Assembly: GCA_020137815.1 (NCBI GenBank) | Contig: CM035351.1 | Span: 2,790,001 to 2,854,000 of the forward strand | DNA: 64,000 bases | DNA from: Hormiphora californensis | Taxonomy: Eukaryota > Animalia > Ctenophora | Direction of reading: 5' to 3' | Part shown: piece after piece, positions 43,746 to 56,650 of the stretch | Layout: every line of letters begins with the position of its first letter | Numbering within the stretch: the first letter of the stretch is position 1 | Translations under genes and position numbers: made by a program | Notes under the pieces: model-generated | Seen by the model: only the letters and a program-made list of their open reading frames with translations | Databases searched by the model: none | Told to the model about the DNA's origin: nothing

Positions 43746-45614
43746 TCAGTCAATCTCGTGCCGAGTTTCTTCGCTTGGTGGAGTCTCTGAGCTTGGTTGA
43801 GTCTCTGAGCTAAGTTGAATCTCTGAGCTAAGTTGAGTTTCTAAATCTGCAGATGTTGGAGTTTCGGTGCTAAGTGGAGTCTCTGGATTTGATGGAGCTT
43901 CTGTATTTGGAGGGTCTCTCCTAAAATGCATGACCACCTCAAACTTCCGTGTATGTGGAAACATATCTACACTAACGGCCTTGACAAACTTGAATGGATC
44001 GCCCAGGAACTTGTTGGAGGTAGGTCCACAGAGTGCCACAATGTTATCCTTTATCTGAGTCACATCACAGCTCACATATACCAGCTCAGATATCATCTCG
44101 GTCTTCCGGAGACATGCAATCACCTCACTGTGTAGACCACTCCGGGGAGGATCAACTATCGCCACAATCCGACCTTTCTGGGGTATCCTTTTAACCGCTT
44201 TCGTTGTCATATGCTTAGCATTTCCCGCCAAAAATGTCACGTTACTCACACCGTTCCGCTCTGCGTTTTTAATTGCATCCTTCACGGCACTCTCGACAAT
44301 CTCAATACCATAAACATGTTTCACAGCGTGAGAGAGTATTAGACCGATAGTTCCAGTTCCACAACACACATCCATCAGATATGTATCCTTGTCAAGAGAT
44401 GCAAAGTCCCGGATGGTATTGTATAACACCTCCGCAGCAGCGGTGTTAACCTGGAAGAAAGATCCGGATGTGATTTGGAACTCCAGTCCGCACAACTTCT
44501 CCAGCATAGTTAGGGGTCCAGCCAGATGGAATATCTGTTCTTTCCCACCCACCAGTTTCAGGAACAGCGAAAAGGATTCCCTGCTCTTGTAGTACTCCTT
44601 CATCAGTTCCTTCACCTCACCCAGTCCAACTTCAGTTAGCTGCCTTTTATCGACAATTGCAGTGACCATGACATGACCCCCACTGTTGGTCCGTACCTCC
44701 AGTGCCTTCCATACACCAGTATTAGCGAGGGTGTCATAGGGAGGGAACTTGGAACCCTCGACCATGATTTTGAACGTTTTAACCTCAGCCAACATCTCAA
44801 CTGAACAGGTTTCCACGCACTCGCTCGCATCCTCCACAGATATGTTCCCCTGGGAAAATTGTCCCCGGACATACCCCACACAACAAAGATCACTCCTGTC
44901 AGCATTTGCACCCACGGTGAACTCACACTTGTTACGGTATCCTAGCAACGTAGGTGATGGTTTTATTTCTGTGAGCGCAAAATCCGGTCCTGCGAAATTT
45001 TTTCCACTCCAAGCGTATTTGACTGCACCAGTAAACTTGTCGAAGATGTCTTGTATTTCCAACGTTTTCAACTTCAGCTGTCCAGGGTATGGTGATTCGT
45101 AAAGAGGGGCCGTCTTCTCCCGGACTGGCACCGCCTCAACTGCACTCTGATTGGATCGCTGTTGTTTTACCAGTGGATTTTCATCAGCCGCTGCTTCTGA
45201 GGCCTTCAGTTTCCCTTTCTTCCACGTCAACTCATTTATAATGTTGATGGCGTTAAACCGCTCTTCATTATTCCTGAAGGTTACATAAGCAACAGCCCGC
45301 TTAAAGGGACGTTTAATCTTTACAATCTGAACATTGTTTCTTGTCAGGAACTTCCTCACTTCATTAGCGGTGGAGTATTTGGGAATGTTGAGGATTTGGA
45401 TCTTGAATATCTCAGAGGTAAAATTGTCAGTTGTTATCAGGGATTGTGAGTTGTCAGGCTGATTTTCTGTGGTGGGTACTGGTGGCTGAATTTCAGTGGG
45501 CTTTAGAGGTGCCTGGATATCGGGATCGCATTGAACATCCCTCACCACATCATCAGATTGATCTGCGGGTGTGCTAATTTCTATCCTGGGTCGTTTTACC
45601 TCTGGTTCTGCCAT
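43746..45614 (-). CDS. TRMT2A: tRNA (uracil-5-)-methyltransferase homologue A, single exon
   Basis: N-terminal RRM (SEIFKIQILNIP, AYVTFRN), GYRNKCEF, SFFQVN, DVCCGTGTIG, AIVDPPRSGL, VYVSC, VDMFPHT. Confidence 0.95.
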   Translation of the reverse strand: MAEPEVKRPRIEISTPADQSDDVVRDVQCDPDIQAPLKPTEIQPPVPTTENQPDNSQSLITTDNFTSEIFKIQILNIPKYSTANEVRKFLTRNNVQIVKIKRPFKRAVAYVTFRNNEERFNAINIINELTWKKGKLKASEAAADENPLVKQQRSNQSAVEAVPVREKTAPLYESPYPGQLKLKTLEIQDIFDKFTGAVKYAWSGKNFAGPDFALTEIKPSPTLLGYRNKCEFTVGANADRSDLCCVGYVRGQFSQGNISVEDASECVETCSVEMLAEVKTFKIMVEGSKFPPYDTLANTGVWKALEVRTNSGGHVMVTAIVDKRQLTEVGLGEVKELMKEYYKSRESFSLFLKLVGGKEQIFHLAGPLTMLEKLCGLEFQITSGSFFQVNTAAAEVLYNTIRDFASLDKDTYLMDVCCGTGTIGLILSHAVKHVYGIEIVESAVKDAIKNAERNGVSNVTFLAGNAKHMTTKAVKRIPQKGRIVAIVDPPRSGLHSEVIACLRKTEMISELVYVSCDVTQIKDNIVALCGPTSNKFLGDPFKFVKAVSVDMFPHTRKFEVVMHFRRDPPNTEAPSNPETPLSTETPTSADLETQLSSEIQLSSETQPSSETPPSEETRHEID

Positions 45615-45686
45615 CGTACTAGTGGGGCATTATCTGAGGTTAAAATATACACAAATATAAAACTCAGGCAAATAAAACGAACATTC

Positions 45687-45727
45687 TTTCAAACTTTTCA
45701 ACACTACTTTAAACAAATTAATTTGAG
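45687..45727 (+). other. Ctenophore spliced-leader exon sequence at the LINE 5' end (copy 1)
   Basis: TTTCAAACTTTTCAACACTACTTTAAACAAATTAATTTGAG, identical to 50575-50615; matches the ctenophore SL as I recall it. Confidence 0.85.
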
Positions 45728-45748
45728 GTGCGGCATCCTCCACCTCAA

Positions 45749-47062
45749 ATGATTTCAGAAGATATGTCCTCTACAAATACAACTGAGGAACAACTGCGGA
45801 TAATCTCGGAGCTGGTAGCTGAAGCGGATACCCCTGTCAAGGAGGTGCTCCAAGCCTATGATCCTGAGTTAACCTATGAGGAGATGCTACCGAAGATCGA
45901 AACACTCCCTGTAAGTGACCTAGAGGCTACTGCAGCTTTCCTCGGACAAGAGGTGACATGTGTGACTGGAGCGAAAAAATACCACTCAGAGAGAACACTG
46001 TCAGACTGGATTATCATGAGGACTGAGGCTCTCTTTCCCCAAACATGTAGAGAGTGTAGTGAATCCTATACGGTGAAAAGGACTGATACACCCCCCGTTC
46101 GGTGTAACTATTGCGATGCTGGACTTCACAACTGTGCGGCTATCCGTGCTGAAGCTGGGAACACAACCAACACAAGGAGCCGAATATGGATGTGCAACGA
46201 CTGTGTCTCAAAACATACTATTGAGAGGTTCAACAGTCACCTACCTGAGGGAGGTCCTCCAAACCCTACTCTTAATTCAACTCGACGCAGTTCAAATAGA
46301 GAGGTATTGGACAGAAGGACCAGTCAGCCTGCTGGCGGACGGAACGATCTTGCTGGCAGAAGGAATAATGGCCCACCTACCGGTGGAGATACAGGGTCGG
46401 ACACGGAGGTTTGTAAATTCTACCTGCAGAGGAGATGCCGACACGGCAAAAACGGAACCGCCAGGGTTGGAAACAGAACCTGCCCAAAAGCCCACCCCAC
46501 CCTGTGTAAAAAGTTCTGTAACTATGGAACCATGAGGAGATTTGGATGTAATACTGAAAATTGCAACCTATTTCATCCTCCCCTCTGTAAGAACTCAGAG
46601 TTACGTCACCAGTGCTTCAAACAAAACTGCATGAAGCAACATCTAAAAGATACTCAGCGGAGCCCGCCTTTTAGAGTTGATGAAGCACCCCGGAACACTG
46701 GTTTAAATGCTCGCAATGATCGTGACAGAAACCAATCCTCTCGGAGCAGGGGTGCAAACCAAGCACCTCCAAATGAACCAGGAATCTGGTCGTCTGAGCC
46801 AACTAGGGATAGGATACCAAGCAGATCCCAATGGCCTCAGGATCAGAACAGGGGCACGAGGCCTGACCCAGACCCGGCTTTTTTAGACGCCATCATCGAC
46901 CGTCTCAGGGACTCTATAGCCGGGATAGTGAGGATGGAAATGAGGAATCGCCCGGAGCGGGAGCCCGACCAACAGCACTACAGCTCCCAGCCGACCCAAC
47001 TCCCTCCAGGAATGGGCAACACATACAGTCCTCATCATCAGAGGGACAGACGGTCTTACTAA
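45749..47062 (+). CDS. LINE ORF1 (PHD-like Cys cluster plus CCCH-type zinc fingers)
   Basis: CRECSE..CNYC..HNC..WMCNDC; CKFYLQRRCRHG..CPKAHP..CKKF..C..FHPPLC; homologous to 50660-51958. Confidence 0.85.
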   Translation: MISEDMSSTNTTEEQLRIISELVAEADTPVKEVLQAYDPELTYEEMLPKIETLPVSDLEATAAFLGQEVTCVTGAKKYHSERTLSDWIIMRTEALFPQTCRECSESYTVKRTDTPPVRCNYCDAGLHNCAAIRAEAGNTTNTRSRIWMCNDCVSKHTIERFNSHLPEGGPPNPTLNSTRRSSNREVLDRRTSQPAGGRNDLAGRRNNGPPTGGDTGSDTEVCKFYLQRRCRHGKNGTARVGNRTCPKAHPTLCKKFCNYGTMRRFGCNTENCNLFHPPLCKNSELRHQCFKQNCMKQHLKDTQRSPPFRVDEAPRNTGLNARNDRDRNQSSRSRGANQAPPNEPGIWSSEPTRDRIPSRSQWPQDQNRGTRPDPDPAFLDAIIDRLRDSIAGIVRMEMRNRPEREPDQQHYSSQPTQLPPGMGNTYSPHHQRDRRSY

Positions 47063-50000
47063 ATACAGCAGGACCCTCAGTTCCCAGTAATCTCTCAAAA
47101 CTGTTGCTTCTAAACGCCCGTAGCCTGAACCCGTCTGCGGGCAGTGAGGCAAGGTTCAAACTGGAGAACTTGAAGGACACCATTATGAACTCAAATATTC
47201 CTGTCATGGCTGCAGCCATCACGGAAACTTGGTGGCGGGCAGAATACTCGGACGCACAGGTTAATATTCCTGGTTTTTCTGTCATCCGCAGCGATCGGGA
47301 AGGTAGGGTTGGGGGTGGCTGTGCCCTCTATCTCCACTCGTCGGTGACCCCTTCCGATCAGATCACATTTTGGGGGGGGGCCTGCCGCAAGAATCTCATG
47401 CCTCATTGGCGATTTTCAGGGTAGCTGGGATTTTTGAGATTTTCGATTTTTGGCTAAAAAACGTGGGATTTTTGAGATTTTTGAGGCAAATTTGCGATTT
47501 TTCGGGGGGAAACCGCAAATTTTTCTCAAAAATCTCATAGAAAGGAAAAATTTCGATTCGAAAATTTGGAATAGAAACAATCCTTGTGTTTTTTTACCGA
47601 AAATCAAAATTCTGAATAGAAATTTTCCTTGTGTTCTAGTACAAAAGTTAATGTGAAGCTAAAACATGAAATCTACCTATTTAAATTACTAAACTGATAT
47701 TATGATTCAGTTTTAAGTTAAAAAATATGTCAAAAAACTGAGTATTGGCGGCCAAAATTGTGCCAATTTACCACAAAAATCTCAAAAATCTCAAACGTAA
47801 TTGAGCAAATTTTCCCAAAAATCTCAAAAATCTCATCGGCCGAAAAGAGGGTAGCTGAGATTTTTGCGGCAGGCCCCCCCCCCATTTTCAGATGAAAGCA
47901 ACAGTGTTGTGGCGGTATACATTCCAAACATGAACTGTATTATCTCGTCAGTTTACAGGGCTCCCACAGTGCCTGTGAACCTAGTTCTTGGGATTTTGGA
48001 GGAATTTATCCCGCGTCACTCGTGTGAAGATTGTCCTCCAGATGTGTTTACGCTTGGTGACTTTAACATGCCTCAGGTAAACTGGACATCAGTATCAGCG
48101 GATCAGGGAAATGCTCTGGTTGACTTTGCTGAGAGAAATTTCCTTACCCAGTTGGTTACAGAGCCTACTAGAGGACGGAACATTTTAGACATTGTACTTA
48201 CAAACAGGGTGGATTATGTTTTTGACACCGATGTATCAGCCACCCAGATGTCGGACCACTCCATGGTGTCTTGTGTCCTCGGAATCGGGATCCACCAGTC
48301 CAAAACAGAACGTGCAGCAGCTGGAAGAGGATTCAAGGCCCTTGACTACCACAACGCAGATTTTACTGCTGCAGGAGAGGAGCTGAGCAGTATTGATTGG
48401 GACACACTCCTATCCTCTTGTATTTCAGACGATGATGGGCACTCAATTGTGCAGTGTATCAGAGAGAAGATACTAGAGGTATTTGAAAAACACAGCAAGA
48501 GAAAGAGGTTTGGTACCCAGAGAAAGAGAGATCCCTACCTGAGAAGACTGAAAAGGAGGCAGAAAAAGCTGAACTCTCGGATGAAACTGGCCAAGCAGAG
48601 ATGCTCACACCAGTCCCTCATCGATAAACTCGAACGCAAGATAGACAAGACAGCCGATAAGATTAAGGCGTACTTGTTAGGCCTGCTGGAAGTAAAGGAG
48701 AGGAAAGCCATTGACACTATCAAATCAAATTCACGGTTTTTCTGGTCCTTTGTCAACAAGCACCGAAAAATCAAATCGAGTGTGGCTCCACTCCTGAGAC
48801 CTGATGGTACAGTGACTGATGACCCTCTGGAAAAGTCAAATATTCTCCAGTCGCAATATGTAGGAGTATTCAGTGATCCGTCCATGTGCTCGGTTGAGGA
48901 GGCTATCAAGGACATTCCTTCTACGACCTGCACGCTAGATGAACTTGACTTCACCCCTGGTTGTATTGAAGCTGCACTGGCTGAATTGGACCCCTACGCT
49001 GGAGCACCTTCAGATGACATACCTGCGGTTATACTATCAAAGTGCCGGAAACAGCTAGCATACCCACTTTGGTTGCTCTGGAACCGTTCATTCACTGAGG
49101 GTGTTGTACCAGGTTGTCTCAAACGGCAACAGGTGACCCCAATTTTCAAAAAGGGTTCAAAGATGGAGGCTAAAAACTATCGCCCTGTTGCCCTCACATC
49201 CCATATGATAAAAACTTTTGAAAGGGTTGTGAGGAACAAAGTTGTGGATCACCTGGAGGGAAATGGAATCTTCAATGATGGTCAGCACGGCTTTCGGAGA
49301 AATAGGAGTTGTCTGACCCAACTTTTGAACCACTATGACAACATCATGCGTGAACTGAATAACGGTCTGGAAGTGGATGTTGTTTATTTGGATATGGAGA
49401 AGGCGTTCGATAAAGTCGATATCAAGGTTGGATAAGTGACTTTCTTTCAGCTAGAATACAGACAGTAGTGGTGGATGGAGTTCAGTCTCGGCCGGAACTC
49501 GTCATTAGTGGAGTCCCCCAGGGCACTGTTCTTGGCCCGCTTCTGTTCTTGGTTTATATGATAGACATTGAATCACTTCTTGCTGGAACAGTCCTAACTT
49601 TTGCAGATGACTCCAAGCTGTGGAAAGCGATCAGGTCACTCAACGACAGAGATAACCTGCAGCTGAGTCTTAATGAATTTGGACGTTGGGCTTCAGACAA
49701 CAATATGTCACTCCATCAGGATAAGTTTGAGGTGATAAATTATACACTTCGCTCCACCCAACTCCTGAGGGAGCTTCCTTTCTCCACTGACAATTATCTT
49801 TACAATGGTCCCGGAGGCGAGACAATATCACCAAGTTTCACTGTGAGAGATCTAGGGGTCCTTGTATCTGCAGACTGCACTTGGTCAGAACACATAGGCA
49901 GCATTACTGCCAAGGCTAGACGCATGAGTGGCTGGGCACTTAGTGTATTTCGGGATAGATCCGATGATACTATGCTAACGTTACTGAAGTCCATCATTAG

Positions 50001-50541
50001 GCCTCAGGTGGAGTACTGTTGTCCATTATGGAGCCCGGTGAAAAAGTCTGATATCGCCCTGGTTGAAGAGGCTCAAAGACACTTCACACGTAGGATTGAG
50101 AGCTGTTCCGGCATGGGGTACTGGGATCGGCTCCAACATCTTGGTATCTTGTCCCTCCAGCGGCGTCGTGAGCGATACATGATTATCCATGTCTGGAAGG
50201 TTCTTCATGAGGTAGTTCCAAACGGCACGGGTCTCCTGTTTACTGAGCACACCCGTCTTGGTACCAGAGCATTGGTCCCCCGTTACAATTACCTCGCTCA
50301 AAAATCCATATCTGGCCCTTATGACTCATCATTCGGTGTTAGAGGAGCACAGTTGTGGAATTCCCTACCCCGTGCAGTGAGAGAGGCAACATCACTGCTC
50401 GAGTTGAAACAGTCCCTTGGGTCCTACTTAACCACCATCCCCGACCAGCCACCTGTCCGCGGTTACCGGGTGGAGCACAGTAACTCCTTAATTGATTGGA
50501 GAAATGACCCCAGTGTGTTTAAAGAGATGGGCGAATCATAG
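47063..50541 (+). pseudogene. LINE ORF2 (APE endonuclease plus RT), disrupted
   Basis: LNARSL, ITETW, LGDFN, SDH, NYRPVALTS, QHGFR, SGVPQG, FADD; broken by the MITE at 47372-47882 and a ~49-nt deletion at ~49427 relative to the inner copy. Confidence 0.92.
47372..47882. mobile_element. MITE with G-run/C-run termini inserted in the LINE endonuclease
   Basis: G9-CCTGCCGCAAGAATCTC / GAGATTTTTGCGGCAGG-C-run; duplicated CATTTT (CACATTTT / CCCATTTT); removal restores Q-I-T-F-S-D. Confidence 0.9.
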
Positions 50542-50574
50542 AAATGTGTTTTGCTTTTCATTGTCATTTGGCTG

Positions 50575-50615
50575 TTTCAAACTTTTCAACACTACTTTAA
50601 ACAAATTAATTTGAG
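50575..50615 (+). other. Ctenophore spliced-leader exon sequence at the LINE 5' end (copy 2)
   Basis: 41/41 identical to 45687-45727. Confidence 0.85.
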
Positions 50616-50659
50616 GCGCGCGCCCGTGCGTTTTCAAATATTCCACTGTAGTGTCTAGT

Positions 50660-51958
50660 ATGGCAATGGACCATGCTAATGACACAGATCCAGCCGTCTT
50701 TGCTGCTGTACTCTCTGAGCTGAAAGAGGATGCCAGAACACCGGTTAAGGAGGTTATTGAAGTTTATGACCCTTCTCTGGACTATGAGGAAAACCTCAGC
50801 AAACTGGAGGCTATCCCAGCTAGTAATCTGGAGGCAACTGCTATCTTCCTTGGCCAAGAGGTTAGATGTGTGGCGTCTGGAGTGCAGAAATACCATTCAG
50901 TAACAACCCTGGCTGACTGGATCATCATGCGGATAGAGGGATTTGGTCCCCAAACATGCAGCGAGTGTACCGAAAAGTATTCCGTGAAGAGAAATGAAAA
51001 TCCCCCTGCTCGGTGCTTCATCTGTGGTGGCGGTCTGCACAACTGTGCTAAGATACGAGAAGAGGCCAGCAGCACTGCTATCAAAAGCCGAATTTGGGTG
51101 TGCTCCCCTTGCCTCGGTAAACAAACTCTGGAAAGGTTTACTAGCCATCTACCTGACGGTGGTCCAGATCCTAGTCATAACTCGACCAGACGTAGTTCAA
51201 ACCGAGAGCAGATCCTGGGAAGGCACATCAGCAGAACTGCAGAGGAACGAGAGGACCTACCGGACCCAGCGGAACAGGGAGAGAGGGTTGTTCCCGGAAA
51301 CGAAGTGTGTAGGTTTTATTTGCAAAGGAGGTGCAGACACGGGAGAGATGGGACGAAGCTAGTTAGTGGCAGATCTTGTCCCAAATCTCACCCTACACTG
51401 TGCAAAAAGTTTTGCAACTATGGATCTATGAGGAGCGTTGGATGCCAGAACACTGAATGTAACTTTTTCCATCCTCCACTATGTAAGAATTCTGAGTTAC
51501 GGCACCAGTGTTATAAACTCAGCTGTACCAAACATCACTTGAGGGACACCCTGAGGACTAGGCCTGGAGAAGGAACATCACGTGGGACTGGAAATGAGAG
51601 GAACCGCCGTGAAAGAATCCCTTCAGCCCAATCACGAACCACAGGTCAAAACCAAGCACCTGATGCAGGACCTTGGTCAAGTGAACCCAGTAGGGCGAGG
51701 GTGTCGAGTGGAGTCCAATGGTCCCAGTCTCAGAATCAGAGACCTGGACCAGATGCTGCTTTTTTAGAGGCAGTCCTCGATCGGCTGAGGGACTCAATAG
51801 CCGGGATAGTGAGAACAGAGATGAGGAATCGTCCAGAGCCAGAACCAGTTCTACTTCCAGACCAGTTATACTCCCAACACACCCAACCGGCTCAACTGCC
51901 GGCAGGAACAGGTTACACCTTCAGCCCTCATCAGCAGAGGGGGAGACGGTCGTATTAG
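50660..51958 (+). CDS. LINE ORF1
   Basis: Same Cys/His pattern as copy 1; ends RRSY*. Confidence 0.87.
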   Translation: MAMDHANDTDPAVFAAVLSELKEDARTPVKEVIEVYDPSLDYEENLSKLEAIPASNLEATAIFLGQEVRCVASGVQKYHSVTTLADWIIMRIEGFGPQTCSECTEKYSVKRNENPPARCFICGGGLHNCAKIREEASSTAIKSRIWVCSPCLGKQTLERFTSHLPDGGPDPSHNSTRRSSNREQILGRHISRTAEEREDLPDPAEQGERVVPGNEVCRFYLQRRCRHGRDGTKLVSGRSCPKSHPTLCKKFCNYGSMRSVGCQNTECNFFHPPLCKNSELRHQCYKLSCTKHHLRDTLRTRPGEGTSRGTGNERNRRERIPSAQSRTTGQNQAPDAGPWSSEPSRARVSSGVQWSQSQNQRPGPDAAFLEAVLDRLRDSIAGIVRTEMRNRPEPEPVLLPDQLYSQHTQPAQLPAGTGYTFSPHQQRGRRSY

Positions 51959-51999
51959 CTTCCGAGAAACCCTCAGTTCCCAGCAACCTTTCCAAACTT

Positions 52000-54958
52000 A
52001 TGCTGCTAAATGCTCGCAGTCTAAACCCGAGTGCTAAGTAGCGAAACAAGGTACAAGCTGGAGAATCTTAAAGACACTATTTGCAACTCTGATATTCCTG
52101 CCATGGCCGTAGCCATTACTGAAACTTGGTGGCGGGCTGAATTTTCAGATGCCCAGGTGGGTATCCCCGGTTATTCTATTATACGCAGTGATCGGGACGG
52201 CAGGGTGGGGGGTGGCTGTGCCCTATATCTTCATTCATCCTTGTCCCCCTCTGATCAGGTTGCTTTCTCAGATAACTGTAATAGTGTCGTTGCAGTCTAC
52301 ATTCCTAACTCAAACTTCGTTATTGCAACAGTTTACAGGGCCCCCACATCAAACCCACTCCAAGTCATCGGAATCCTGGAGGAGTTTATTCAACGCCATT
52401 CCTCCGGTGATTGTCCGCCTGAGGTTTTTGTGCTAGGTGACTTCAATATGCCCCATGTAAACTGGTCAAATCTTCCAACCGACCAGAGTAACTCCCTGGT
52501 TGAATTTGCTGAGAAAAATTTTCTTACCCAACTAGTGACGGAGCCCACGAGAGGTAAGAGTATCTTGGACATTGTTCTTACGAATAGAGTGGACTATGTC
52601 CTCGACATGGATGTAACGGCGACCCAAATGTCTGACCACGCTCTCGTTTCTTGCATTCTGGGAGTTGGGCTGAAACAGGCTAAGTCAGACTGCAAACGAG
52701 CTGCTAGAGGGTTCAAGGCACTTGATTACCACAATGCTGACTTCACCGGGGCACGTGAGGAGCTAGACGCTATCAACTGGGACGAACACTTAGCTCCATA
52801 TGACATGGAAGATGGCGGCCACGCCTATGTCCAATGTATTACAGAGATTGTTCTAGGCGTGTTCGAAAAGCATTCTAAACGGAAGGTTTTTAGCAATTTA
52901 AAGAAGAGGGATCCCTATCTGAAACGATTGAAAAGGAGGCAGAAAAAGTTGAACTCCCGGCTAAAACTTGCTAGGGAGAGATGTTCCTACCAGTCCCTGA
53001 TTGATAAGCTTAACCGTAAAATTGAGAAGACTGGTGATAGGATAAAGGTTCACCTCCTTGGGCTTCTGGAAGGAAGAGAGAGAAAGGCTATTGACACTAT
53101 CAAATGTAATCCACGGTTTTTCTGGTCATTTGTGAACAAGCATCGGAAAATCAAGTCTAGTGTGGCCCCACTCCTAAGACCTGATGGCACAGTTACCGAT
53201 GATCCCCTGGAGAAATCAAACATTCTTCAGTCACAGTATGTGGGGGTATTCAGCGATCCTGCTAAGTGTTCGGCCGAGGAGGCTACTAAGGATATTCCTT
53301 CTACGACCATCACACTGGACAATCTTGACTTTACTCCCGGCTGTATTGAGGATGCATTGGCTGAGTTAGATCCTTACGCTGGAGCACCACCAGGGGACAT
53401 ACCAGCGGTTATACTGTCCAAGTGCCGGAAACAGTTGGCATACCCCTTATGGTTACTTTGGGATTGTTCTTTCCATGAGGGTGTCGTACCAACATGCCTT
53501 AAACGCCAATATATAACACCCGTGTTTAAGAAAGGATCCAAAATGGAGGCAAAAAATTATCGGCCTGTCGCACTCACCTCCCACATGATTAAAACATTTG
53601 AGAGAGTTGTAAGAAACAAAGTTGTCGATCATCTGGAGGGAAATGGGCTCTTCAACGATGGCCAGCATGGTTTCCGGAGGAACAGAAGCTGCTTGACTCA
53701 ACTCTTAAACCACTACGATAATGTCATGAGAGAACTGAATAACGGACACGAAGTGGATGTTGTGTATTTAGACATGGAGAAGGCTTTTGACAAAGTCGAT
53801 GTCAAGGTCTTGATGGCAAAATTGGAAAAATACGGTATTCGGGGACAGCTACACCGTTGGATCAACAACTTCCTTTCAGAAAGAGTACAAACAGTGATGG
53901 TAGATGGTGCTCAGTCTCGGGAGGAATTGGTCATCAGTGGTGTCCCACAGGGTACAGTTATTGGTCCCTTGTTGTTTTTAGTCTATATGATAGACATAGA
54001 GACACTTCTTTCTGGCACAGTCCTCACCTTCGCAGACGATTCCAAGCTGTGGAAGGCAATCAAGTCATTGGATGATAGAGAGGATCTCCAGAAAAGTCTA
54101 GCTGTGTTTGCTCGTTGGGCGACAGATAACAACATGTCCCTACACCAGGACAAATTTGAAGTTATGAACTATACTCTTCGCTCCACCCAACTGTTAAGAG
54201 AGCTGCCATTCTCCAATGAAAACTACTCCTACAGTGGGCCTGGAGGCGAAACGATATCCCCTAGCGAATCTGTCAAAGACCTAGGAGTCCTTGTTTCAAC
54301 AAACTGTGCATGGTCGGAGCATATCGGCAGCATCACGACTAAGGCTCGTCGGATGAGTGGCTGGGCACTTAGTGTGTTTCGGGATAGATCGGATGACACC
54401 ATGCTAACCCTACTCAAATCCATCGTCAGACCCCAGGTTGAATACTGTTGCCCCCTATGGAACCCTGTCAAAAAGTCAGATATTGCACTGGTTGAGGAGG
54501 CACAGAGACAATTCACCCGCAGGATCGCGAGTTGTTCGGGCATGAATTACTGGGACAGACTCCATCACCTCAAAATCCTGTCCCTTCAACGGCGCCGAGA
54601 ACGATATATAATTATCCACGTCTGGAAGGTCTTGCATAAGGTAGTACCAAACAGTACGAGTCTCTTGTTTACAGAGCACCCACGCCTTGGCACCAGAGCG
54701 GTAATCCCTCGGTATAACTACTTGGCCCAAAAATCCATCTCTGGCCCCTATGACTCATCATTCGGCGTAAAAGGAGCTCAGTTATGGAATGCAGTGCCTC
54801 GGGTAGTGAGATCTTCAGCTTCCCTACTCGAGCTAAAGCAGTCGCTCGGTAAATATCTGTCCACCATCCCTGACCAGCCACCGGTTCGTGGGTATAGTGT
54901 TCAGCACAGTAACTCCCTGTTGGATTGGAGAAACGATCCGAGTGTTTTCAGAGAGTAA
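52000..54958 (+). CDS. LINE ORF2 (APE plus RT) with one apparent 1-nt insertion at ~52037
   Basis: MLLNARSLNPSA then a frame change to SSETRYKLE; the 975-codon ORF that follows is intact with FADD, YCCPLW and LSLQRRRERY. Confidence 0.92.
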
Positions 54959-55317
54959 ATCATTCAGGGGTGTTTTGCTTTTCTATGTTGTTTGGCTGCC
55001 CACTAAAACCCGATTCCTTTTGGTGTCTGAGTGTTAGCTCTTTTTGAGCTGAAACTTTGTGTACAATGCTTAATTTATTTATGAATGTTTATGAATGTTT
55101 ATAACCTGCTGACTTTCCATGTCATCTGAGTGTTGGCTCCTTTTGAGCTAAAGCTTTGTGTACAATACTAAATTTATTTACGAATGTTTACGAATGTTTT
55201 ACGAATGTAAAAAGTAACCAATAAACAAATCTATTTACATAAATGTAGTTATTTCACAAACAAAAATAAATGGTTGAGATTGTACAAAACTATCTTTTAG
55301 TAAACCTTGTAATGTTT

Positions 55318-55869
55318 CTACAAGGTTCCTTTCTGTAGTGCCACGATTTTTCTCTTTTTCGCATTTAATAGTTCGACACACCGTCCCAACAGATCCCTCT
55401 GAATGTTGTTACATTCAACAACTCGATCACTGAGCACTGCTTCAAGATCCGCTTTGGATTTTTGGCAATCATTCAAACTGTCTTCAGTCTCCCGAAGAGC
55501 GGTTGAATTTTCTGAATTTTCAATGAGCATTCGATTTATAAGGGCTGTTGCTGCAGACAAGGTAAACTCCTGAGACGGTATCAAAGTGAACTCAGCCCAG
55601 GTTATAGAGGATGAATCATCTTCAATTTCTTCGCTGAATGTAAGTGTTTGTTCGGCACATGACCATGAAAACTCAGAGTCAGTTGAACGGATTTTACCCC
55701 ATAGTTCATCCAGTGAAGTACCCGTTAAGAATGGAGATGTTGCTTCTAATTTGCCCTCATGTTTTTCACCGTTGATATATCTCTCCACTATAATACTGTC
55801 TCCCTTCAACTGTAAAACGACGGGCTCGCCAGATTTCGTTTGTTTAACTATGTAACCACTGAGATCCAT
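55318..55869 (-). CDS. XRCC4: XRCC4-like NHEJ protein, single exon, short
   Basis: Beta-rich head, coiled coil and the ligase-IV-binding-like motif DLLGRCVELLNAKKRKI. Confidence 0.72.
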   Translation of the reverse strand: MDLSGYIVKQTKSGEPVVLQLKGDSIIVERYINGEKHEGKLEATSPFLTGTSLDELWGKIRSTDSEFSWSCAEQTLTFSEEIEDDSSSITWAEFTLIPSQEFTLSAATALINRMLIENSENSTALRETEDSLNDCQKSKADLEAVLSDRVVECNNIQRDLLGRCVELLNAKKRKIVALQKGTL

Positions 55870-56650
55870 AGCCTGGAAATATGAAATATTTTAGTCTGAG
55901 GAGATTAGATAAAGTTTGTTTGAAGGAACTACCGACAACGTGGAATTGAAATATTAAATAGGAGTCGGCACCGGGCACTCTGGTCACAGCAGACTTGCCA
56001 GATTTAGTTTAAATTTGGTTATTTTTCTTTTTAACATTTCAAGTGTGTTCTCAGCTTACTTTGGGAAACATCTCAGCCCATTAACAACGCTAAATTTGGT
56101 TTATTTTGATTTTGGAGACTCCGTAGTAGTTTTTCAAAAAGTGACGATCGGTTTTTCAAAATTTTTAATTTTTATTTATTTGGAAAATTCAAATTCAAAA
56201 TTTACATAAACAACGAAATTCGCGCGGCTTTATATTTGCGCGTTAATCTCGCGCGTTACATCGACTTCATTAAATTTGACTCAATTATTGTAATTGACTG
56301 TTGGAAAACAGGGTAGTGAGTCGCCAGACAGATCAAATGAAATAAAATCTATACACTTCTTTCATTAATTGGAAAAATTATTTACACCAATTTCAAATCT
56401 GTACAGTTACATCTGTAAAATACTTCAGTCCTTCACGTACAGCCACTGCCACTGCCAGAGGTCTGAGTCCTGAGAGTCTCACACTCAACTGTCTCACTCG
56501 AGACTCTCAGTCACTGAGAGACTCACTCACACTGAGATTGAGTCTCTATCTTAACTTACATATGTATTTACAACTGCAGTTACAAAATACTGTTCCACTA
56601 ACCACTTTGTTGAGTTTATTCAGCAAGTTCCACTGTTCATGTTTCCATCC

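Follow-up and report, generated by a model that had tools for sequence, protein, structure and literature searches.

Spliced-leader-headed LINEs in the ctenophore Hormiphora californensis and a possible renewal of their 5′ ends by trans-splicing

Retrotransposons that lack long terminal repeats (non-LTR elements) have to rebuild their 5′ end each time they copy themselves, and the solutions known among them are internal promoters, promoters located in the 3′ end of a neighbour, and ribozymes. A loan from the trans-splicing of the host would be a further such solution, in this case for an animal and for two lineages. The locus described here is a nested pair of long interspersed nuclear elements (LINEs) in Hormiphora californensis (assembly GCA_020137815.1, contig CM035351.1, positions 2,790,001 to 2,854,000; this whole 64-kb stretch is referred to as the window), each of which has a copy of the host spliced leader (SL) as its first sequence.

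Leader sequence at mobile elements in an animal has a precedent in parasitic flatworms, where partial leaders were reported at 597 loci of LTR and LINE elements, with the suggestion that retrotransposon RNA had integrated after trans-splicing (PMC12582326). Those loci were a by-product of filtering, and the one paragraph devoted to them neither delimits the elements nor tests whole families, and describes no cycle of renewal and no structure at the junction, whereas the ctenophore LINEs offer a near-complete SL, an empty site, two lineages and a predicted hairpin. In dinoflagellates and Perkinsus, reverse-transcribed trans-spliced RNA leaves the SL in DNA through repeated rounds, but the resulting SL-tagged retrogenes are passive host genes, often with tandem relict SLs (PMC6050394); the ctenophore elements are autonomous LINEs with a single SL, and a second, relict SL was found in none of the nine compared below (among the matches listed). 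Transposable elements (TEs) of Hydra likewise use trans-splicing, about 30% of TE Iso-Seq reads carrying the SL, although the passage concerned treats this at the RNA level and does not report the SL as a genomic 5′ end (PMC12220107).

NeSL and SLACS (PMC4640811), and likewise CRE, are non-LTR elements next to SL sequence, but they insert into SL RNA genes and use a restriction-like endonuclease, whereas the window LINEs are of the apurinic/apyrimidinic endonuclease (APE) type and carry the SL to unrelated sites. The trypanosomatid L1Tc/ingi elements are comparable as a LINE 5′-end solution in a trans-splicing host, having the Pr77 internal promoter and a hepatitis delta virus-like ribozyme (PMC1874656, PMC3185411); L1Tc is reported to give unspliced RNA, from its own promoter or by self-cleavage, whereas in the ctenophore LINEs the host leader forms the 5′ end. 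[quoted passage not shown]

The authors who printed the H. californensis leader counted 718 genomic copies of the leader, and 491 of the leader motif in Mnemiopsis, the origin of which is left unexplained in the relevant passages (PMC8527503). The SL-headed LINEs of ctenophores are a variant on the published theme of SL sequence in retroelements, with the junction hairpin newly described; a literature search covering few subscription papers and not Repbase returned no SL-headed LINEs in ctenophores, no renewal at the SL's own AG and no junction hairpin.

The leader at the head of the nested pair

A preliminary description of this DNA had held that both LINEs begin with an identical 41-mer and that this is the ctenophore SL exon without its first bases. 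Exact copies of the 41-mer indeed lie at 45687-45727 and 50575-50615, and allowing up to 3 mismatches yields no third match in the window (shuffled sequences with a match, 0 of 100). The 41-mer agrees at 41 of 41 nt with positions 4-44 of the published H. californensis leader, which is 44 nt long (PMC8527503). The ORF1 start had been placed 20-45 nt behind the leader, and the first ATG lies 21 nt behind it in the outer element (45749) and 44 nt in the inner (50660). Between the two leaders there are 0 differences in 41 nt, against a divergence of 24-31% in the element bodies; by our arithmetic, a divergence of about 26% would leave 41 bases unchanged about 4 times per million in the absence of constraint or renewal.

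The pair is composed of the following parts, the outer LINE comprising 45687-50574 and 55100-55208 and the inner LINE 50575-55099:

45687-45727, + strand: SL copy (nt 4-44 of the leader) with which the outer LINE begins, by match to the printed sequence
45728-45763, + strand: outer 5′ untranslated region (UTR), with an acceptor-like TTTCAG at 45753-45758 (by sequence, the acceptor role being putative) and a start at ATG 45749, in the stem, or at the in-frame ATG 45764
45764-47062, + strand: outer ORF1, with PHD-like and CCCH-like Cys/His clusters that we take as such from their spacing
47040-50541 (start approximate), + strand: outer ORF2 (APE and RT), from ORFs, broken by a miniature inverted-repeat transposable element (MITE) and by a 49-bp deletion near 49428
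50542-50574, + strand: first part of the outer 3′ UTR, up to the inner LINE (alignment, contigs)
50575-50615, + strand: SL copy forming the 5′ end of the inner LINE (leader match, contigs); the G at 50574 may belong to the SL or to the target
50616-50659, + strand: inner 5′ UTR, with its first downstream AG at 50650-50651 (sequence)
50660-51958, + strand: inner ORF1, open
52025-54958, + strand: inner ORF2 (APE and RT), open over 977 codons (Pfam, contigs)
54959-55099, + strand: inner 3′ UTR, ending in a 10-nt tandem-repeat tail (sequence, contigs)
55100-55208, + strand: second part of the outer 3′ UTR, ending in a related 10-nt tandem-repeat tail (alignment)

The inner copy was said to sit within the 3′ UTR of the outer, and the latter does resume at 55100 and end at 55208. 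That the leader came with the element is shown by contigs from 4 of 22 listed runs (X2 and X5 from organism A, X8 and X12 from organism B) that were compared with window positions 45000-56000. Summed contig depth in this comparison is not a copy number, an assembler can prune a low-depth branch, and a further 707 loose ends, 26 joints and 1304 variant rows lie beyond those listed. A joint from 50574 to 55100 with 5 other letters between is present in two of the four runs (X2, depth 634; X5, depth 3352) and represents the empty site of the inner LINE, that is, outer-family copies with an uninterrupted 3′ UTR and no SL. These joints therefore show the SL arriving with the inner LINE, at a cost of 5 bp of the target and without a target duplication, which upholds the earlier claim that the 41-mer travelled with the element and is not a target as for NeSL, SLACS or CRE, and which leads to rejection both of the SL as a target and of the 41-mers as a duplication. 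A head-to-tail reading of the two 41-mers was excluded by the same contigs. For the outer element, no empty site appeared among the joints listed for the four runs.

The leader is family-wide in both organisms. Whole contigs of X2 run unbroken from inside the SL into an outer-type element (45719-46145, depth 376) and into an inner-type element (50606-51461, depth 484), depths that compare with 399-500 for three inner-family ORF2 contigs and about 45-72 for flanking DNA. In the second organism, a 340-nt contig of X8 (50610-50949, depth 426, 29 other letters) starts inside the SL, and, from variant rows, the outer-family contigs of X8 and X12 begin at about 45719 and 45700. Behind the SL, each listed loose-end row continues in 9-13 different ways, among them a sister subfamily departing at 45748. 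The preliminary description would have been contradicted by full-length family members lacking the SL; the contigs instead show family members with the SL in two species, and an SL-free 5′ end of the element was found in none of the contigs listed for the four runs.

Both elements are APE-type LINEs. They are dispersed and multi-copy (contig depth 5-14 times that of the flanks, a rough figure) and have no LTR; both ORF2s carry PF14529/PF03372 (APE) and PF00078 (RT) above the curated Pfam cut-offs, and the tandem-repeat tails occupy 55070-55099 (inner) and 55178-55208 (outer). The ORF1 proteins, of about 430 aa each, are 59% identical, and the aligned nucleotide identity of the two elements is 69% in ORF1 and 74-76% in ORF2. 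Neither ORF1 was named by a Pfam search, and the zf-CCCH clusters that Atlas assigned to ORF1 (scores 0.76-0.82) serve as a lead only. The elements are presumably CR1-like or L2-like, labels that we base on motifs.

A second LINE lineage and the leader/UTR junction

Metagenomic contigs were scanned for exact matches to the last 24 bases of the SL, which gave at least 121 loci. Among the matches listed, 109 of 113 mRNA-type loci in eight data sets begin within the SL, as mRNAs would, confirming the leader role. Two further data sets are taken as DNA because none of their eight loci is mRNA-like; these eight, among the matches listed, are two SL RNA gene units and six SL-headed elements, no host-gene retrocopy being recognised among them. 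SL scans of viral contig and genome contig collections gave 0 matches.

Four of the six elements (L028, L039, L042 and L064) are SL-headed LINEs of one lineage, with APE and RT within the contig in three. Their RT is only 28-29% identical to that of the window, and in an RT tree without named CR1/L2 references L039, L042 and L064 stand on a long branch apart from the window lineage (support 100/100). The SL as element head therefore recurs in an unrelated LINE lineage, here from seawater sequence data. The flank ahead of the SL is just 6 nt in L042 and 5 nt in L064. In the ORF2 of L042, a Gly-rich repeat of 13 residues is inserted about eight times between the endonuclease and the RT, with the frame kept.

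The fifth element, L071, consists of the SL and a frame presumed from its motifs to be ORF1-like, and is related to L015, an SL-headed mRNA-type contig with a related ORF; L071 (1-1258) ends in a short tandem repeat about 100 nt behind the frame and may be an ORF1-only, non-autonomous LINE. The sixth, L085, is a 35-nt SL followed by sequence without an assigned type, in which a frame at 186-486 holds the motif DIEGNP, reminiscent of the 2A-like peptides of some LINEs. A further locus in an mRNA-type set, L081, has about 280 nt of flank, the SL and a window-family ORF1 (E 5e-19). An acceptor-like TTT(T/C)AG is kept in the DNA directly behind the SL or hairpin in L071, in L081 and at window positions 45753-45758.

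Together with the window pair, the seven elements found through the SL itself make nine, in about five independent groups. In all nine the SL lies directly at the 5′ end of the inserted DNA and ends at the splice junction; eight reach to within 3 nt of the SL start, and none has a flank in common (among the matches listed). An AG-free stretch of at least 21 nt behind the SL is present in 7 of 9 elements against 18 of 104 host ends, a post hoc observation and a lead only. A scan of genome contigs with ORF2 found two loci (L122, L123); the RT of L122 is 27% identical, and no SL 12-mer is present in L122. The LINE-type RT of L122 fills a 3.3-kb contig of a bacterial metagenome-assembled genome, probably as animal contamination.

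The SL RNA genes (L087/L088) read SL/GTAAG in tandem units 778 bp apart on one contig. The mRNA ends and the gene agree from AG onward, and the templated SL is likely 43 nt in length. A folded intron of about 100 nt is found behind SL/GTAAG (z -3.55), the upstream flank is matched by a loose-end consensus of X8, and no Rfam match was obtained for the ctenophore SL RNA gene. The window 41-mers were considered as SL RNA genes and rejected, for a LINE UTR lies behind them and similarity to the L087 intron is absent (shuffle p 0.36, 0.64). Descent of the UTRs from the SL RNA intron was also rejected: only one of nine beat its own shuffles (L085, p 0.004, uncorrected), and the window pair did not.

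Folding predicts, for each window element, a UTR that doubles back onto the end of the SL (z -2.75 and -2.31):

45715-45755, + strand: predicted hairpin of 15 pairs, 14 of them at p of at least 0.77, formed by the 3′ end of the SL with the outer 5′ UTR (folding)
50609-50639, + strand: predicted hairpin formed by the 3′ end of the SL with the inner 5′ UTR, in the same register as the outer, with two compensatory pairs (folding)

The preliminary description had called the two 5′ UTRs dissimilar, which does not hold, as 22 of 39 aligned columns agree and the predicted hairpin, a feature missing from that description, is common to both. Pair +2/+15 is U-A in the outer element and C-G in the inner, pair +6/+11 is G-C (p 0.37) in the outer and C-G (p 0.99) in the inner, and pairs +3/+14 and +5/+12 are kept. 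All three listed substitutions of sister copies are compatible with the hairpin, falling in the loop (45736) or changing G-U to G-C (45739) and U-A to U-G (45752). From the compensatory pairs and sister copies, the predicted structure is unlikely to be an accident of one copy, and the SL/UTR junction of the window lineage is likely under selection. None of 104 host mRNA ends and none of 200 shuffles paired with the SL end as much as the outer element does; for the inner element the counts are 2 of 104 and 9 of 200. A general antisense-to-SL hairpin in all elements found no support, the hairpin being strong in the outer element, moderate in the inner and absent in 5 of 9; in L028 and L042 it does not go beyond their own shuffles (20 of 200 and 26 of 200).

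Proposed renewal of the leader and its alternatives

Judging from the sequences, the RNA from which these elements were copied very probably carried an SL from trans-splicing at some point. That the leader is renewed at the SL's own AG in most cycles is favoured on balance, because renewal alone keeps the SL pristine and nearly complete, and the junction fixed, without an SL-free master being in view. In the proposed cycle, a full-length copy would integrate with an SL lacking 0-3 nt and would be transcribed from an upstream host promoter (in an intron, an operon or a further LINE) or with a weak start inside the SL. Trans-splicing at the terminal AG of the SL would then swap the genomic SL for a fresh, capped one and recreate the same junction, while the predicted hairpin would hide the next downstream AG and the donor-like SL/G(T/C) junction, so that the UTR would rarely be shortened. 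Finally, ORF2 would copy the trans-spliced RNA by target-primed reverse transcription. A possible trace of such splicing is a DNA contig of X5 (50613 to 50650) in which the end of the SL is followed by the base behind the inner UTR's first downstream AG, at a depth of 297, compared with 286 and 354 for the flank contigs of X5; an SL joined to the next AG in DNA is what trans-splicing at a second acceptor would give.

Several points weigh against this cycle. The AG-joined contig is a single contig in one of four runs with a 25-nt side, and cis-splicing of a 36-nt GC-AG piece, or a deletion at a 2-nt microhomology, would produce it too. GAG is a rare and poor 3′ splice site, and in the outer predicted hairpin, which would form in the precursor as well, the terminal AG of the SL is paired at p of about 1.0. 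In organism B (X8, X12) summed depth is about 7-19 fold higher at the 3′ end than in ORF1, so that many copies there are probably 5′-truncated. A contig of X2 (depth 235) appears to join outer-type ORF2 to a shortened SL (49000 to 50605) and is unexplained. Requiring an exact 24-nt SL makes the identity of the metagenomic leaders partly one of design, and SL-less relatives could not appear; with 7 of the 9 elements recognised through the SL, the number of relatives without it cannot be read from them. L081, in an mRNA-type data set, reads through the SL from its flank of about 280 nt, although this decides nothing on replacement, because contigs cannot tell a replaced from an unreplaced SL. 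The X2 contig may itself be a second nested insertion with a damaged leader, multiplied together with its flank. In its full form, the proposal that at least two unrelated ctenophore LINE lineages would be promoterless and follow an obligate trans-splicing cycle, with the SL as its own acceptor, a co-evolved hairpin and a capped, full-length 5′ end each round, is advanced tentatively, its probability being judged somewhat short of even.

The best surviving alternative, though an unlikely one, is a fixed SL mimic, in which each lineage would have captured the SL a single time and would now encode it as an internal promoter and/or translation signal in RNA that is not re-spliced, the hairpin shielding the junction from the spliceosome. 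The predicted hairpin over the terminal AG fits this mimic as well as it fits renewal, and the two compensatory pairs and three compatible sister substitutions are what a preserved signal would show. The SL/UTR junction is, moreover, homologous within each lineage, C follows the SL in 0 of 9 elements against 51 of 104 host ends, unlike at ordinary acceptors, and a promoter role has been proposed for the retroposed SL of dinoflagellates (PMC6050394). The hairpin, however, constrains just the last 13 nt of the SL and is weak or absent in 5 of 9 elements, yet no substitution is found in the 41 nt of the window pair or in the freely varying 5′ part of the SL in six other copies. Insertion loses 0-3 nt, yet no lineage has eroded or flank-derived first bases.

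Renewal must also be weighed against the view that SL-headed copies are dead ends, descended from masters with their own promoter and an outron before the acceptor, and do not themselves propagate. Such an origin would account for a pristine SL equally well; trans-splicing of TE transcripts is common in Hydra (PMC12220107), and the flatworm loci were so read, with no cycle implied (PMC12582326). A branch from the master would be expected in the contigs, but they are unbroken over the SL/UTR junction in X2 (both families) and X8 (inner family), and the 5′ depth of the inner family in X2 is near that of its body. The master would, in addition, need a second, unspliced route of copying, and this explanation is considered improbable.

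Chimeras of SL RNA and LINE RNA, formed by RT template switching or by RNA ligation, would, as in U6-L1 chimeras, also place pristine small-RNA sequence at the 5′ end. The join, however, is always at the SL splice junction and at one fixed, homologous UTR position, never with SL intron sequence and never at random LINE positions, which leaves such an origin very improbable. Slighter still is the chance that the SL is an insertion target of the SLACS/CRE/NeSL type or that the two 41-mers duplicate a target site on either side of the outer element: identical copies do enclose 45728-50574 and the SL RNA genes are tandem here, but the inner empty site is without SL, the outer element continues at 55100, the flanks of the nine elements match neither the upstream region of the SL gene nor its GTAAG intron, and the endonuclease is an N-terminal APE rather than a restriction-like enzyme.

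If renewal by trans-splicing is correct, it would constitute a third general LINE 5′-end solution beside internal promoters and ribozymes, reached repeatedly in SL-using eukaryotes, and most of the unexplained genomic SL copies in ctenophores, numbering in the hundreds, would be retroelement heads. This offers a testable explanation for the 718 copies in Hormiphora and the 491 in Mnemiopsis. It also carries a warning, in that annotation of genes by the SL may wrongly place their first exons at LINE heads, and every insertion may add a potential acceptor to the transcription units of the host.

State and neighbourhood of the pair

Two further features complete the locus:

43746-45629, - strand: host tRNA (uracil-5-)-methyltransferase gene (ORF, Pfam), the LINE pair lying antisense to it and just upstream
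47366-47883, strand not assigned: 517-bp MITE-like insertion with 27-nt terminal inverted repeats, without counterpart in other copies

With this insertion and the 49-bp deletion, the outer copy is, by its sequence, dead. MITE-free joints (47365 to 47883, 47367 to 47885) were found in all four runs. The MITE-like element is high-copy in both organisms, its 27-nt inverted ends are bounded by G/C runs, and it contains internal short repeats; contigs that join the SL (45697) to it (47561) on opposite strands occur in runs X2 and X8 and are unexplained. The inner ORF2 of the window has a single extra base at 52035 that is absent from the contigs of X2 and X5.

An eukaryote gene model, P0126, fuses a window-type ORF1 to a cyclic-nucleotide-binding domain and is probably a LINE merged into a host model. 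Just ahead of the outer SL, the minus strand of the flank at 45670-45686 resembles one unit of the 3′-tail repeat, by chance or through a target preference. An unnamed 190-codon ORF (55318-55890, - strand) lies on the same strand as the methyltransferase, which is a single long ORF; minus the 9.5-kb LINE insertion, the two would stand about 170 bp apart in a plausibly operon-like arrangement.

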